A stretch of 52,987 bases of DNA, counting the filler, from Bipalium vagum (lineage: Eukaryota): assembly GCA_037834085.1 (NCBI GenBank). It is 3 parts of 3 records of this genome, joined end to end, with 100 filler letters (N's around TTAATTAATTAA, not from the genome) between each part and the next. Parts side by side here need not be neighbours in the genome. Positions count along the whole stretch, not along the records: positions 36,977 to 52,987 come from JBBMKC010132493.1; 2 more parts are not named here. One strand, given 5' to 3'. The notes under the pieces were generated by a model. It was not told the origin of the DNA. It worked only from the letters and a program-made list of their open reading frames with translations, and ran no database searches. Numbering within the stretch: the first letter of the stretch is position 1; every line of letters begins with the position of its first letter. The position numbers were made by a program, and so were the translations under genes. Shown piece after piece: positions 10,390-51,610 of the stretch.

Positions 10390-11050
10390 CATTATCTTTT
10401 GACAAATCCCTGTATATATTAAATATAAATGATGTAATCAAGAAAGCACATTGGATTTTTTTAAGACGAATTCTTTTTCAGTGAATACGATTGATTTATA
10501 AGTTTTAGCTTATATAACTTAACAAAATAAGAGATGTCACGGTTGAAATAAATGGTAAAGTATTTGTAAACAGAAAGTATTTGAATTTGGTAATCTTTTC
10601 CGATTAAGAAACGGATTCGCCGAAAAACCATTTTTGACACATTCTTTTTTTAAGAAAGGTAAAAGTGTTCAATTTATCACCAGTAAGATTTATGAACTCT
10701 ACGAACAAGGTACTATGTCCACAGAAACAATTCAAAAATGGTTTATGAAATTCAATAAAGATATTATGACTCAACTGCTATATTTACCTACACACCCCCC
10801 TTATGATCACCATATATTATTATATCCCTCCTAATTGTATTAACCGATGGGAATTTTAATTCTCACTTGAATGACTTCTCCAGTAAGCCAATGGATTTCT
10901 ATCAGATTTCTATTTTCAAATATCGGACCAATGGCGAAGAGTAATTGAACAGAATGGAAAATATTTTGTTAAATAAGACTGTTAAAAATTGTTTGGTTTT
11001 TCTTAGATTTGCTTGGTCAAAATATACAGGACTTTCCAAATGACTTAATA
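10390..11050 (+). mobile_element. Internally deleted mariner
   Basis: NHF*HIL, KKGKSVQFITSKIYELYEQGTMSTETIQKWFMKF, THPPY and C-terminal QWRRVIEQNGKYFVK*; degenerate TIRs sharing cctgtatat/atatacagg. Confidence 0.75.
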
Positions 11051-12065: not shown

Positions 12066-12194
12066 AGGAACGAAAATTATTTGTGGGGATGCTAAATAAA
12101 AATCAGACTGAAGAAGATGTCAGAAGACTCTTCAAATCATTTGGAGAGATTGAAGAATTGACTGTATTGCGGGATCAAAATGGAAATAGCAAAG
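12066..12194 (+). CDS. CELF3-6/Bruno-like RNA-binding protein, internal exon (first part of RRM2)
   Basis: tttcag acceptor; translates (E)[42 protein letters not shown](G), matching CELF RRM2 including RNP2. Ends at AAAG|gcaagc (GC donor), phase 1. Confidence 0.95.
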
Positions 12195-13796
12195 GCAAGC
12201 ACTGGTTTTATGCGCCATAATTCTTATTTTTTTGTTTTACTAATTGGAAAATAAAAATAATCTAAAATACTTTCACCAGTCGACATATTAACGGAAAAAA
12301 AGAATTGAAATACTTATTCTATTCATTCTATTTCTATCGCCTTACATTCCCGTGGAATTCGTTGTTCTTACAATAATAGAATTCCATTTCGTTCCTCAAA
12401 TGTGACAATTAATGAAAAATTCAGTGATAAAAATACATCATTTTACGTTTTTTGACAGTTTGACAATTGATAAATTATAAATTACGATGCTCTGATTTTT
12501 AATTCATTTAATTTTTAATAGAAATTTTTTAAAAAAAAATTATAATTTATTTTTTGTTTTTTTTTCAATGTAATTTTTGAACAAATTAATTATTTAAGTG
12601 AAAAATCAATGTTTTATTTCATGGCAGAAATTTTGACCAATTTTTTTTAAAATGATTAATTAATTATTTTTTAATTTAACCATTTCTATTGCACACACAT
12701 ACACACACATGTGAACCATGTTAATTTGAAAATAGATAAAATAATAAAATCTGATTTGTTTTAATGAGCTGTGCAAATTACTTAATTAAAAAATTATTAA
12801 TCAATTTAATCAGTTTACAATGTAATTAATTATTTATACAGATTTTTTTTCGTTTTCAAATTGTCATTTTTTGCTCAAGTTTATTAATTAAACCATTTTT
12901 CTCCGTAATTGGGATTCGGAATTGTTAGTTCAGAGGAAAATTACGTGAAAGTAATTAAAATCTTAATTAAAAATGTAAAGAATAATTAAAGAAAATTTAA
13001 TTAATAACATGATAATAATTGATATTTTAAAATAATAAATAAAGTATCCGTCACGAGCTTCCTAATACAATTTCTGTCCATAAGATATCGGCAGGGGGTT
13101 TTGTGTACTTATCAATTTTATACAATTTCCTTGCCGACTTTCTGTCAGAAAATAAATGAAGACGAGTCTAAGTAGACATTTGTTCACAAATAATTATCGA
13201 AGACTTTCATTTAATAAAGAAGAATAAAAGAAATGGAACGGTCTTGGGAAGTCTTAGCATCCTTTCTTTATGAAAAATCATTGAGACTTGATACTTAATA
13301 ATATTTTTTTCGTATTCTCCTTCAAAATATATTTAAAAGTGACACCGTTATCCCCAAATGTCTTCCCATCCTTAAGCTAGACAATGAAGAGTCCCACCAA
13401 AGATGTATGTAAGGTATGGAACTATATAGAGCGGAAGGTCCTTAAACCAGTATCGAGAATTAGAAACGCAAGAAATTTCTTGTTTGTTTTTCTCAATTCC
13501 TCGGCCTTCTTTACTGAAATGGAATAGAACTTGGTCTTCCGTCGAACATAGGAATAGAAAAATCAATAAGAATATTTTTTATGGTTTTAAATGAAACGTA
13601 TTTATGATATTTTGTAGAAAGGTAATGAAATCATTTTCACTGAAATGACTTCCCGTTTCTTTTGTCTTTGTACGTTATGGAATAATGTAGTGAAACAAAA
13701 TAATGTTACTTAATTGTTTTTGTATTAGGTTCACCTTTTATTAATAGTCAAACGGATCATCAATAGGAATAACCAATTATTGAGAATGAAATACTA

Positions 13797-14986
13797 TACG
13801 AGGCTAATTGAAAAGGTTGTGGAACATAATTAAGAATAAGTTATTCAATAAAACAAATTTTTCATCAAAATAATTTCCCAAAAACCCAATGCATTTGTTA
13901 CAGAGGTTCTTCAATTTATTTACCAAATTCGGAAAATGATATTTACGTCTGCTATAACTTCGTCTTTTGATGAGAGCCACTTATTATGTACAATCATTTC
14001 AGATTTGGGAACCAATGGAAAGCAGATGGTACCATAATATGGCGGACTTTTCAGTAATCTATAATGTAATTCCTTCAATTTGACCACTGAATGGACGCAT
14101 TTTTGGGTTGCCTCATTGCCTTGATGAAAAAAAAATTTTTTGGCTAAGCCTTGTCTATTCTTACGAATGTTTGCATAATTGATGCAAAAAGGCAAATATT
14201 ATATTCACCTATTCATTTTTTGGAAGGTAACCAATTAACAAAATAACTTTAGAATAAAAAAAACCTGATGCTATAACCTTTGCGACGATTTCGTCCATTT
14301 ACGCTGTTTTGGAACTGAGCAGCCAAGCTGAGTCCACTCTACAGCTTTCAGTCTCAAGACTGAATCATAATAGTCAATCAAAGTTTCATTAATTGTTACA
14401 AATCAGTTTTATTCTAAAGAATAAGGGCCAAATGTTGGGTTTTTATTTTTACTCGAAATTCTTTTTGATCAAAATTTGAGAAATCTGGGATCTGTCTTGT
14501 ATATTGGTTTCTCCTTCAAATTGTTGAACGCACGTTCAATTAATATTTCTATGACTTCATATATTTGAATCAAAATCAGTTGATGATCACAAATGGAATC
14601 AATCATTTGCTGCAATGTTGCACTTGTGTGTAATCCCGAATGACAATCATCTCCAATGGTTTCATGCAAACTTTGGAACATCAGACCCCATTTGGAAACT
14701 ATAGATTGTGATGACGCAATATCACTTAGTACTTTTACCATTTCATTATGAATTTGCATAGGTCTCACACCTTTTCTATAAAAAAATTGTTAATAGAGCG
14801 ATTGTCAATCTCTTCCATTCGTAAAACACGTCACTTTAAATTGCATTAAATGAAAATTAATTTGGCAAATGACCTTGACATTGTGTATGAGTTATTATGA
14901 ATAACGGTTTTTAAAATTGCACATAATTCATAGTTATAAAACTGTGTCAAAGGTGGCGCTCCACGAAATTCTCAATTAGCCTATTA
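13797..14986 (-). mobile_element. Near full-length degenerate mariner (irritans-like) inside the CELF intron
   Basis: TIRs TA-cgaggctaattgaaaaggttgtgga / tccacgaaattctcaattagcctat-TA; ORFs 14469-14768 (QIHNEMVKVL...SKW...DDCHSG) and 13920-14195 (FFHQGN, LKSPPY). Confidence 0.88.
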
Positions 14987-15108
14987 TTATAAGTATTGTA
15001 TATATTTCATTTTTTTAGTTTGACATCCTAATTTTAATGTCATCTTTAATGCTGGAAGTGTATTTTAGGATTACTTGTAAAAATATTTTATAATAATTTT
15101 TCATTAAG

Positions 15109-15188
15109 GGTGTGCTTTTGTAAAATTTTCTTCACAAATTGAGGCTTTAGCGGCAATTTCGGCCCTCCACGGAAGTCAGACAATGCAA
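15109..15188 (+). CDS. CELF3-6/Bruno-like gene, internal exon (RRM2 RNP1)
   Basis: ttaag acceptor, phase 1; (G)[26 protein letters not shown] then gtaaat donor. HGSQTM points to CELF3-6/UNC-75/Bru-3 rather than CELF1/2. Confidence 0.95.
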
Positions 15189-15236
15189 GTAAATGGGAAA
15201 ACTACTTTTATACTTACAATAAAAAATCTTTAACAG

Positions 15237-18970: not shown

Positions 18971-20050
18971 TATTAGGTTGATGCATAAATTAGCACACCA
19001 AATTTGCTAAAATAATTTTAGAACAAATTTATTCAAAAATAGGTTTATCTATTCTTCAAAAATATAAACCACAATTTTCGATGATTTTCTTCCACCGGAT
19101 GTGGCAGAATCTCGATACCGTCCAGCTCCGTAAACTTTTGTTTGGTCTTCTCGGGTTGGCGTTATTCTGCTGGAATAGTGGACGTTCTCGATTAATTAAA
19201 GCCGGGTATTTCAACTTCAGCTTCTGGTAGACGCAATCCAATTGCCGACAGTAAAGCTCAGAGTTAATGTCATTACCATTTGGAACAATTTCAAAGTGCA
19301 AGATGTCCTCAAAGTTCAACAAGTCAGAAATCATCACTTTTTTACTAACCGAGTTTTTTGTGGAACTGGTGGCGGAGACTGTCCACAAGGAATCTATTGC
19401 TTTTGTCTCTCATGGTTTACTAGATAAACCCACTTCTCATCGGATGTCACAATTCTTTTCCAGAAACGATTGTCTAAAAGATTATTGAGCAACTGTTGGC
19501 AGATTTCGAGGCGTTTGCTTCCCTGATCCTCAATAAGTTCGTTGGGATCTTGTCTAGGTTTCAGCTGATGCAGGTGACGTAAGATTTTGAGCACCATTTT
19601 TTTCCTAAATCACGACTGGTAGAAGGTTCTTTAACCAAAGCTGCCAACAAATCCTCACTACCCATTTTGATGACCGACCTGAGTGAGAATGGTTTCCCAA
19701 TTTTAAATCACCTTCGTTGAAACGCTTGAAGCATTTTCCCACTGTTTACTTAATTACTGTACCGACACCTTCGATCGCACAAATCTCGTCTGTGATATCT
19801 GTGATTGTCTGGTCTTTCTTCCAATAATGGTGAAGCAACACAAGTAAATCGTACAGATTCTAAATATAATAGTATTATTAGTTATTATTTATTTTAATCA
19901 TTCGTTATAAAAATTATTATTGATATTTTTTAATTTAAATATTATTTAAACAAGAGCATATATGAATATAAAAAATTTTGATTATAATCATAAATCAAAA
20001 CAATTAAAGAAATGCTATTTTTGTCCGCGAATTTATGCATCAACCTAATA
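18971..20050 (-). mobile_element. Mariner element with perfect 21-bp termini, internally deleted
   Basis: tattaggttgatgcataaatt / aatttatgcatcaacctaata; RIVTSDEKWVY, INSELYCRQLD and FQQNNA motifs in ORFs 19394-19597 and 19056-19388. Confidence 0.93.
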
Positions 20051-42409: not shown

Positions 42410-43502
42410 TATTGGGTTGGCAAGAAAATTCGTGGGCGTTTTAATATTGTAATTTGTAAATCAATTTTTCATACATCAATCATTCAGTTGTTGTTTAAAT
42501 AATATAATAGTCTTACGCGATAATTAAAATATCATTATGCAAGATAAGAACTGCATTTCCGTTATATTTTGTTGTTATATTTTGAAAAAGGTAATTACTG
42601 TATTATTTATAAATATTATGTTAATTTTAAAAAGGTAAGCGAGTCCCGGATGCACATACGAAAATATGTAAAGTATATGGAGATAATGCTTTATCAATAC
42701 ATGTATGCGAAAAGTGATTCGCCAAATTTAGTTGTGAAGAATTTGATGTGATCGATGCATCCCGCTCCGGACGTTAGGAAAAATTGTGCCTTCTGAGATT
42801 CGTTTCGCGAATCAATGTTTGGGTACCGCAAAAATTAACAGAGCAATTGATTTCCAGGGATGAAAAGTGGATTGTCTTTTACAATGTGGTCCGCAAAAGG
42901 TCATGTGGTCGTCCTGGTGAGCCACCAAAATTGTCACCAAAAGCAGGAATACACTCCAAAAAATGATGCTTTCTATTTGGTGGGTTTTTAAAGGTGTAAT
43001 TTATTACAAGCTGTTATCATCTTGCCAAACGATTTATTCGAATGTGAACTGCCTCCAATTGACAAAGGTGAACAATGTAATCCACGAAAAGCGTCCAAGA
43101 TTAGCAAATCGGAAGAGTGTCATCTACCAATACGACAATTCCAGGCCTCATATATCTTTGGTCAACCGGAACAAATTACTGGCTCTTGGATGGGATGTTA
43201 TGTCTCATCCTCCATACTCACCGAACTTGGTTCCTATCGATTATTATTTGTTTCTGTGACTGCAGAATTCCTTGAACGGGAAAACATTCAATGACTATGA
43301 GTCTGTCAAAAGAAACATTGAAACTTTTTTTTTCAAAGAAAACCCAGAGGTTCTACAAATGTGGCATCATGTCTTTGGCAGAAAGATGAAGAAAGATCAT
43401 TAATAATAACATTATTTTAATATTAACATTATTTTTGTCCATAAGAATAATTGATTTTATCTTTTCTTTATAAAGCACACGAACTTTCTTGCCAATCCAA
43501 TA
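42410..43502 (+). mobile_element. Mariner element, mellifera-like, internally deleted, with an intron-like insert
   Basis: TA-ttgggttggcaagaaaattcgtg / cacgaactttcttgccaatccaa-TA; motifs HFRYILLLYFEKG, WVPQKL, DEKWI, YDNSRPH, HPPYSPNL. Confidence 0.95.
42591..42634 (+). other. 44-nt GT-AG intron-like insert in the mariner transposase ORF
   Basis: AAAAAG|gtaattactg...tgttaattttaaaaag|GTAAGC; removal restores FEKGKRVPDAHTKICKVYGDNALS. Confidence 0.7.
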
Positions 43503-43552: not shown

Positions 43553-43860
43553 TAATTGGACCGAGGAATAAATTATTTCGTTTTTTTATTTATATACTTT
43601 AATCAATGCAATAAAAAAGTTCTTGATTGTCAATCACTGATGTATTCTCCATCGGATTGAACAATTTGAAATCATCTCTGTTTGAAAGCCTCCATATCTT
43701 CGATAAAATTCTGATAAAAAGGCTGAGATCTCTGATTTGATCTTGGAACTCTTGTCAACTGATTTTGGATAGATCTGATTCAATAGTAAATTGATATTTC
43801 CAGATCTGAAAAATTGGTGGATGGGAAAAGACTTCCAAATCCGTACTCTTTATATTCTCT
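43553..43860 (-). mobile_element. Mariner 3' fragment
   Basis: Minus-strand LEVFSHPP and *FQIVQSDGEYISD* C-terminus. Confidence 0.65.
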
Positions 43861-44204
43861 CAAGTCAAATTCTAGTGGTATGTGGTCTCTTGTTACCGTA
43901 TTGCAGGAGTACACTATGATATTAAACTACAATTTAAAAGTTATTCAAATTAATTTTATCAAAACCAATTAAAGATTTATAACGTTTTTAATAAATCAAT
44001 AAATATAAATATTATTAATGAGGATAATAATATCAATAATATTAATAAAAATGTAATTATTAAAATAGATATTCGATAAATAATAGGCATTATTTAAAAA
44101 AGATTTAAGTAAAGGAAATCCTTAACCTAATAATTCTTATATTATAATAATATAATAATATATATAATAATAATAAAAAAAACTATAATATTGATAATAA
44201 TAAT

Positions 44205-44690
44205 GACTCAAATTGACTCTTTGCGAAACTGTGATGTATGTGATAATAAAAATATCGTAAAGTATTCGGACTTGAAGAGAAAAATTAAACTCACAAAACC
44301 TCATTATAAAATCCAACTGAAGACGTTGCTTATTGGATCTCTTGGGACGATACATCCGGATGCAATAGACATTCTAATCAATATTGGAATCCCAAAAAGG
44401 AAATCAAGTGCACTTTTAAAGTCATGTGCAATATCAATTATTGAACAATCGACGAAGATCTAGAACTTTCATGCTGCATGATATTTAGTTAATTTTATGT
44501 AGGTTGAATCAAATCAATTATTCAAATGAATGAAATTTGTCAAAAACCATGCTGGGTTATTGTATCTATGGCACTTGTGCTTGTTTATTTAATTTATCAG
44601 TCTCGTATGCATCAAGATTTTTTTATAAATAAAATGTTATAATAATAATTATAATAATAATAACAATAATAAAAATAATAATAATAATAT
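44205..44690 (+). mobile_element. 5'-truncated REL-endonuclease non-LTR retrotransposon (NeSL/R5/R4-like) 3' end
   Basis: NKNIVKYSDL..IQLKTLLIGSLGTIHPDAIDILINIGIPKRKSSALLKSCAISIIEQSTKI*NFH matches the K..KY..L / IGSLG / S..IW..H tail of REL domains; AATAAA at 44628 followed by (AAT)n. Confidence 0.8.
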
Positions 44691-49426: not shown

Positions 49427-49593
49427 CTTTTCAATTATCTCATATCCGCCTCTTTTGTAGCTGACAGTCAGACCCTTAACTGTCCCGAGTCTCTTTACTT
49501 CAATTTCCATTCCAGTCCTTTACTTTTTTACTTTCGAGATCTCGTCTGCTGGTTGGTGTCCTGATGTTGTCGTCATGTTAGTTGAAAATTAAT

Positions 49594-49654
49594 TGGACAT
49601 ACCGGAATTCGAACTCGGGGCACATGAACTGCCTGACCGCTAAGCTACATCCCC
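49594..49654 (-). pseudogene. tRNA-derived sequence (Ala-like acceptor and D arm) in the 5' LTR
   Basis: GGGGATGTAGCTTAGCGGTCAGGCAGTTCATGTGCCCCGAGTTCGAATTCCGGTATGTCCA: A box TAGCTTAGCGG, B box GTTCGAATTCC; anticodon arm partly deleted. Confidence 0.85.
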
Positions 49655-50640
49655 CGACGAATTTTCAATTTATCTCACACATCCAATATTGTTTCAAAAG
49701 TATTGGAAGAGAAAAGAAGAATAGTAGGCCGAAACAAAAGCATTCTGTTGGAACAAGGCGGATAATTATCCGAGAAGCAAGCACTAAAGCAACCAGTCTA
49801 CAACGTATAAAAACAGATTTAGATTTAAATGTTTCAAAAGACACCATTGGACATTTTAAAATCTGGTAAAAGTTCGATTCAGAAAAAATGAAAGTAAATC
49901 CGAAATTGATGCCACCACACAAACAACAGCCACTTTTTTAGATTAAAGGTAAATTTAATTGAGAAGATCAATGAAAAATGTTATATAGGTTGACGAAATA
50001 AACCTAATCTAGTAAACCAGAAGGTTGTCCGTACTATTGACACTATTTGAGGAAAAAAATTGGATCGATCTTGGAGACATACTCAGAAATGTCTCTTTAA
50101 TGATCTGGATACAAAAGAGAATTGTATACCACAACAAACTTCTCAAGTTATTAATAAAAACGGATCTGACATTAAATATTATCATTTCATTTTAATTAAA
50201 TTTATTTCAGTATTTAATATATTTTTATGTGTGACAATAAATGTTATGTTTCCTCAGTTTTTATTTTTCTCTAATTAAATTTTAAGTGTAAATTCAATAA
50301 TATGTACCTATATGCTCTAAAGTTTAGTCTAAACTCATAAATTTTTATTTAGTGAGAAAACCTAGCTATATTTAAGTACTTAGCACGATATATTGTTGTA
50401 TGTGTAAGTGCGCAATTAAATTAGTGCCGTATTTGACGTTCGTCAAATAAAAATAAAATATATGTACACTAAGATATTTAACCAACAGAATTGTTGCTGC
50501 ATTAATCGGGAAAGGTAATACAATTAATTTTCAATGTCTGATTAGAATGTCGATTTAATATGTAATCAATTTTCAGGTTATTTTTAAAATTTTTGCATTG
50601 TTCAGATCTAATCTCAGTTATTTTGAGATATCGGTAATTT

Positions 50641-51610
50641 TATGACAGAAATAAGAGAATTATTAGATTTTGAGAGACAACTTATAATTCTCCTTAGAAA
50701 GGAGAATCTTATGTAAGGATTATCAAAGTGTCCAAAGAGATTATCTGAAAAAACAACAGTTTGACAATCTTGTTGCCCTTTTTAAAAGCAGATTCATTAA
50801 CATCTGGCCGGAAAAGAAAAGCTGGACTCTCTAAATGCTTTTCTGATGTGAAGGTCTTAGGTTTATCACCCATTCGTGTAGAAGATACTGAAAGAAGGAA
50901 CTTGAGTTAAACAGAAATCACTGGGAAATGAAAATATCCAAGACATCTGTTTTTAATATTCTTAAACAAGTGCTATTAAAGAATAAAGTGTAATTTTTTC
51001 ATTTACAATATCAAGCAATGCGTATGAGTAATTCCAGTGCTCTTGGTGACCATTTTGGACAAATGGTTGATTGATAGAAATAATGGTTCTCAGATGAAGC
51101 AATATTTTCATTACTAGATCCTTTGAATTCTCAAAATGACAGAATTTACCGAGAGAAAAGTGTAAAATTCACAAACACAATGAAAATGTACTGGTTAAAT
51201 ATAAATATCCAATCATTTCTTTTTTGTTATGGTGCAGTGTCTTTGTATGGGAAATTTTGTTTCAGGTCAGGAGCATTTTCTTCAATGTAGAAGAAAAGAA
51301 AACTGTACATCCAAATTTTTATTGCTAGGACTGTACCAGAACCCAAACTGTCAAGGCTACTTTTGCCTTCTTGCGAATCTGAACATTAGCCATCAAAATG
51401 TTATGATGGTTATTGTATTTGAGGTTTGTTACTGATAGAGACACAGAAAAGTCGTCTTGATATAAATATATTTGGATATATGGAATAACATGAAGTAATA
51501 TAGAATAATGTTACATCGGCCACACCTCGAAATGAAAAAAAAGCTCTTATTCCACGATTAAAAAAAGGTAAAGTAGTGCAAGGAAGCCATTTTAAACATT
51601 GTATATGAGT
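50641..51610 (+). mobile_element. Decayed DD37D/DD41D-like transposase
   Basis: ISKTSVFNILK, WFSDEAIFSLLDPLNSQNDRIYR and C-terminal QGSHFKHCI*. Confidence 0.72.

Follow-up and report, generated by a model that had tools for sequence, protein, structure and literature searches.

Tc1 and Tc3 of C. elegans each carry a single short intron in the transposase gene and, like Minos, are Tc1-type elements and not true mariners. In Minos itself (Drosophila hydei) the transposase intron is 60 bp long, in a source that writes DD34D for the element (PMC2874221), and in TLEWI of bivalves GT-AG introns are described as gained within a Tc1/mariner transposase gene of the DD36E type, which is low-copy, without terminal inverted repeats (TIRs), split by several introns and probably domesticated (10.1101/656579). 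As a rule Tc1/mariner elements are stated to be intronless (PMC10379824), and mariner-like elements are said to hold one intron-less gene, which is a description and not a catalytic criterion (PMC3158080). On the account given in PMC3443670, introns can be gained by tandem genomic duplication of AGGT, both splice sites deriving from one exonic site and the protein remaining unchanged.

Here we describe two mariner families of Bipalium vagum (assembly GCA_037834085.1), A and B, whose transposase gene is interrupted by an insert of 44 or 46 nt that is very likely a functional intron. With the mellifera mariners, to which Famar1 belongs (PMC8664452), they have in common a length of about 1.28 kb, TIRs of about 30 nt, a TA target, a 342-aa transposase in which 34 residues separate the last two Asp, and the motifs WVPHKL and YSPDLAP. 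The A/B clade differs from these mariners in reading TSDE instead of TGDE and in having its first helix-turn-helix domain interrupted by a putative intron, and it is an exception to the intron-less description of DD34D mariners. No intron-bearing DD34D mariner was found in the open-access literature, a scope outside which Repbase and most subscription journals fall, and the term 'intron' had no match in 10.1101/2022.10.13.512200. As mobile Tc1/mariner elements with one short transposase intron, A and B resemble Minos, Tc1 and Tc3, but for the A/B clade intronless sister families and a duplication footprint are both at hand; nor are they TLEWI, being DD34D, TIR-bearing, multi-copy and furnished with one intron, with which they appear to have transposed. 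They are like the tandem duplications of AGGT in that both splice sites would come from one duplicated exonic site with the protein unchanged, and unlike them in that the duplicate accounts for no more than about 24 of the 44-46 bases, filler making up the remainder, and in that the intron sits in a multi-copy transposon, so that reversions can be counted. For most new introns the source cannot be traced; in this case the gain falls on a single branch, with an intronless sister in the same genome, duplicated codons still legible and precise reversions countable. Homology pipelines would score such families as frameshifted and dead, and since mariners spread by horizontal transfer, a very short intron yields a testable host-range prediction.

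An earlier note on this DNA, made from the sequence alone, had held that a mariner transposase in the window (the whole stretch of 52,987 nt that was analysed) is interrupted by a 44-nt GT..AG insert, that excision restores a frame collinear with intronless transposases, and that one 10-mer spans both junctions. All of this is borne out: the insert lies at 42591-42634, the 10-mer AAAAAGGTAA begins at 42585 and again at 42629 (the only other window copy lies at 51562), and the transposase gene of the family majorities has no interruption besides the insert, a T-run close to the 3' end of the A sequence being ambiguous. By itself the 10-mer says little, part of it being splice consensus; in the A majority the junction repeat extends to 11 nt. 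The window copy is dead: it has lost 103 nt near 42770 and 72 nt near 42841, it carries small frameshifts and indels as well as stops, and it retains a Pfam Transposase_1 match on 42921-43256 (E 3e-14). Where the family has the donor GTAAGT, this copy has the decayed GTAATT, and its exon 1, which in the family comprises 18 codons and one base, is one base short near 42545. In an intron-less copy (L162) the domain HTH_48 spans the intron site. Over the first 212 majority bases (42410-42625) the window copy has 7 derived variants in common with a copy on another contig (L052, C253625), 4 of them intronic and with few further downstream, a pattern for which gene conversion or a common sub-lineage is possible.

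Table 1. Features of the window; positions count along the whole stretch.
Feature	Position	Strand	Remark
Whole mariner element	42410-43502	+	contig C132493 (JBBMKC010132493.1); TA to TA, inverted repeats of about 30 nt
Left TA target-site duplication	42410..42411	+	read from sequence
5' terminal inverted repeat	42412..42441	+	about 30 nt, inner edge approximate
Transposase exon 1	42537..42590	+	begins first helix-turn-helix domain
Junction repeat, copy 1	42585..42594	+	exon end and donor
Putative intron, predicted to be spliced	42591..42634	+	44 nt, phase 1, GT..AG
Junction repeat, copy 2	42629..42638	+	AAG acceptor and exon 2 start
Transposase exon 2	42635..43415	+	broken DD34D transposase, 3' end approximate
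3' terminal inverted repeat	43471..43500	+	inner edge approximate
Right TA target-site duplication	43501..43502	+	
Exons of CELF/Bruno-like RRM gene	12071-12194, 15109-15188, 15237 onward	+	Pfam RRM_1
Decayed mariner/Tc3-like transposase pieces	19059-19609 (-), 10559-10831 (+), 49582-49866 (+)	-, +, +	Pfam Transposase_1, HTH_48, HTH_Tnp_Tc3_2_like
Short open frames beside the element	44203-44460 (+), 43637-43849 (-)	+, -	no Pfam match

Family A was gathered from the genome with the whole element (78 matches, the best 40 of 620 candidates being scored) and with its 5' part (40 matches, the best 40 of 196 candidates being scored). Among the 73 loci aligned, one (L029) came from another family and the others are 0.82-0.93 identical to their own majority; judged by this divergence, family A is an old burst. 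The insert, scored across the 52 A copies that span both junctions, is whole in 46 (a doubtful copy, L006, and one with a large further insertion, L021, included), partial in 5 and absent from 1, a set partly biased towards the insert, some members having come from insert-holding queries. Genome-wide, 23-letter junction probes with 1 mismatch allowed found 34 junctions with the insert (control 1) against 1 without it. The 5' flanks, compared for 37 A copies, show no relationship to one another (no pair above 52%), and TA flanks the element in 18 of 18 cases, a count that is partly circular, as the majority sequence includes the TA. The A majority has the donor GTAAGT and the acceptor AAG and, left unspliced, its frame stops after 71 aa; across copies the splice-site bases decay at the pace of other bases, as is expected of dead copies.

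The stray locus L029 led to family B, whose members differ from their majority by a mean of 2.7% over 56 loci and which is, on that measure, the younger of the two. Its insert occupies the same site as that of A and measures 46 nt; without it the B majority is an open DD34D frame of 342 aa, and with it a stop follows after 34 aa. Of 31 B loci chosen by their exon 1 sequence, 19 have the intron through to the acceptor, 3 end inside it, 8 end too early and 1 is without it. When 71 contigs were tallied automatically, 37 contained the anchor, with the intron present in 25, absent from 2, too short to score in 9 and otherwise in 1; this tally overlooked a third insert-less copy, L219. In a B fragment (L123, near 900-960) a deletion at an internal repeat has left about 26 nt of the intron, and in L132 a TIR is joined straight to the acceptor region.

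That the insert is spliced is suggested by frame and selection. Neither 44 (A) nor 46 (B) is a multiple of 3, and both exons remain collinear; removing the insert gives a frame collinear with intronless relatives. Between the A and B majority sequences, compared over 308 codons, A being cut at codon 308, amino-acid identity is 77%, with dS 0.69, dN 0.13 and dN/dS 0.18 (bootstrap 0.13-0.26). In exon 1 alone, with site counts taken from the same comparison, changes fall at 5/8 silent as against 6/46 replacement sites (p 0.006), and since exon 1 is thus constrained on its own as well, it is likely spliced to exon 2. On the simplest reading, both lineages would have spliced the insert out during their transposition. 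Among the 7 sequencing runs listed as containing the sequence (5 of them with 0.21-0.30 of its words) none was of RNA, and contigs from 4 of the 7, aligned to the exon 2 side of a B copy, end before reaching the junction, which speaks neither for splicing nor against it. U2-type features are present in the GT..AG ends and the majority donor GTAAGT, and removal restores a conserved, selected frame; the acceptor is AAG after an A-run, unlike the usual YAG, and by alignment a branch-point-like motif of the A intron is not kept in B. Unusual conservation of the intron itself was considered and set aside: A and B agree at 40/44 aligned intron bases, where fourfold sites show 40% change, and composition may account for this, the changes in AT-only columns being 3/40 in the intron, 3/35 at fourfold sites, 3/37 in the 3' UTR and 15/75 in the 5' UTR.

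A search of Logan proteins gave a single close cluster, that of P0001 (311 aa, which begins at residue 32), followed by full-length proteins at no more than 68%. The N-terminal residues of P0122, of the P0001 cluster, match the B intron read in two frames, so that its source DNA probably holds an intron, although for both P0001 and P0122 the intron state is read from protein N-termini alone; the P0122 intron end seems to converge on the ancestral exon codons. P0122 matches Mos1 (E 5e-86), and its family was not found in this genome, where the best matches, at 79-86%, are family B. In a midpoint-rooted tree of 53 proteins, none of them a labelled outgroup of another subfamily, A, B, P0001 and P0122 fall on one side of a branch with support 100/99, adjoining the intronless family D. 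Because these four form one clade, a single intron gain suffices, and the intron is, on this tree, placed as gained once, before the A/B split (dS 0.69). In family D, of the same genome, the insert is absent in 17/17 copies (L223, L225-L237, L239, L240, L243), and it is likewise absent from all 9 metagenome loci, one of which (L256) is unaligned over its first 32 residues. P0130 (JGI) shares 97% identity with the D majority protein, and metagenome contig L249 carries an intact, near-identical element; horizontal transfer is possible, as is the presence in that sample of a relative of the host. At the first catalytic Asp, TSDE replaces the usual TGDE in A, B, P0001 and P0122, whereas D retains TGDE. 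The A and B majorities have the DD34D spacing of 34 and the motifs HDNA and YSPDLAP, and their proteins are 60-63% identical to Forficula transposases; all near matches are of the mellifera type, a subfamily placement that is provisional.

The ancestry of the insert can still be read in part. Over its final 19 nt the intron agrees with the D coding sequence immediately preceding the site at 17/19 positions in A and 18/19 in B (p 0.0014 and 0.00013 in composition-keeping shuffles) and with the element's own present exon end at 15 (A) and 16 (B), below the D match; it is this longer match to D coding sequence, unlike the 10-mer alone, that carries the likeness beyond chance. The B intron end is in coding register and resembles the final codons of the exon. 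The D majority and the two nearest metagenome relatives have the Gly codon GGC, where A and B have silent variants that read AAG/GTAAG, and the proto-splice site therefore likely arose first and was duplicated afterwards. The course of events we propose begins from this comparison, the Gly-Lys codons of the intronless outgroups forming no GT donor and the silent variants of the clade supplying AAG/GTAAG. A local duplication of about 24 bases around AG/GT, by slippage or break repair and together with about 20 AT-rich filler bases, would then have left an AG/GT site flanking both sides of a 44-46-nt stretch, of which the host spliceosome would have taken copy 1 as donor and copy 2 as acceptor, giving the exact 342-residue protein. 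As the comparisons show, the element so equipped spread in at least two bursts in this genome (the old A and the young B), its coding sequence under purifying selection, and the persisting repeats allow occasional loss of the insert from single copies by deletion between them. A source for the filler of about 20 nt was not found on comparison with the 24-nt unit (p 0.15-0.17), which leaves triplication of that unit unsupported; with no source for the filler, slippage duplication and repair with a templated insert are indistinguishable. The earlier note had entertained a snapshot of intron birth: duplication of the AG/GT site is likely, but the birth would lie before the A/B split and not in this copy. 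A real intron and its birth by duplication of the AG/GT site are, taken jointly, probable.

Three B copies lack the 46 nt, have an open frame and read Gln for Lys at codon 17, with intron-side letters at both diagnostic positions, which points to deletion between the repeats and not to loss through cDNA. A cDNA route in B was set aside, the genome junction probe returning 0 exon-type intronless B junctions; the single A loss (L002) fits either route. Over 266-368 bases the three insert-less B copies have no private variants in common, and a common origin was rejected on that ground, although a star-shaped family leaves their independence unproven. Two of the three came through a protein search that favours open frames, so that about 1 in 20 is closer to an unbiased figure. 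The loss shares, 1/52 at about 11% decay (A) and 1/20 at 2.7% (B), imply by hand arithmetic an expected loss of about 10-70% over dS 0.69, and retention of the intron is therefore not significant. Loss in one step leaves an open frame, yet the intron persisted in at least three transposing lineages, and on this rests the idea that selection keeps it as a means of tuning transposase output or dose, an idea that we regard as doubtful and that has so far no positive support. If it were true, splicing might aid expression, or dead products of 34-71 aa from retained introns might limit dose, and the clade may be confined to hosts that splice introns of 44-46 nt, a self-made splice-based control and a host-range filter in one.

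Other readings of the insert differ in how they fare against this evidence. The earlier note named as a possible refutation that the insert be present only in this dead copy, as a neutral insertion mimicking an intron; the window copy is indeed dead and its donor non-consensus, but dozens of dispersed A copies and the sister family B carry the insert, which has already refuted that reading and leaves it with practically no chance, while the note's alternative, an intron-bearing mariner family, stands, the insert being family-wide in A and common to B. A second reading makes the insert a disabling duplication and its bearers non-autonomous passengers of an intronless helper transposase. The AAG acceptor is weak, the genome is very mariner-rich (20,565 HTH_48 candidates, 150 of them scored, the best 30 matches being several intronless families) and so offers, family D included, intronless mariners that might act in trans, and an open frame is present in the three B copies that lack the insert. 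Passengers of this kind are nevertheless highly improbable, for purifying selection acts on insert-bearing sequences on both sides of the insert, exon-type intronless junctions number 0 for B and only 1 for A, and the intron-side letters mark the insert-less B copies as descendants of insert-bearing elements.

The intron might also be real and of other origin, whether foreign DNA taken up at break repair or a small mobile insert with target duplication, the likeness to the exon end then being AT-rich chance plus splice consensus. An intron about 90% AT would suit this, as would the filler without a source, and in the account of PMC3443670 old and new Drosophila introns alike are repeat-flanked. 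The match, however, extends 19 nt upstream of the acceptor and withstands composition-keeping shuffles, the intron end is closer to outgroup coding sequence than to its own present exon, and it keeps coding register, a deletion through the intron end leaving an open frame; on these grounds we consider another origin improbable and prefer an intron born from a duplicated AG/GT site.

The host itself appears to splice introns of nearly this size. The earlier note likened the insert to host introns of 46, 48 and 48 nt, of which a 46-nt intron (35310-35355, by heuristic only) and one of 48 nt (15189-15236) were found; with intron 1 of PRP8 (47 nt) these make a small sample of three. The insert measures 46 nt in B and 44 nt in A, the latter below all three. 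AAG occurs in 1/5 host acceptors examined (at 15108), a tiny sample. The PRP8 gene (L246, C176348, 1017-8219) has two introns, of 47 nt and about 220 nt, over about 2,350 codons, and is intron-poor for an animal gene. The best matches of PRP8 are to flatworms, at no more than 79-80%, with a brachiopod and insects close behind at 78%. Within the window, the RRM gene that we take to be of the CELF/Bruno family has an intron of about 2.9 kb (12195-15108) which holds mariner remnants and whose splice sites, judged from the continuity of the RRM, appear to be GC (donor) and AAG (acceptor). Elsewhere in the genome, open frames of 342-371 aa stand at some mariner matches (C113130, C234365, C235450, C235533, C233906). 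Of the two short frames beside the window element, the one on the plus strand presumably resembles the end of a non-LTR retroelement gene.
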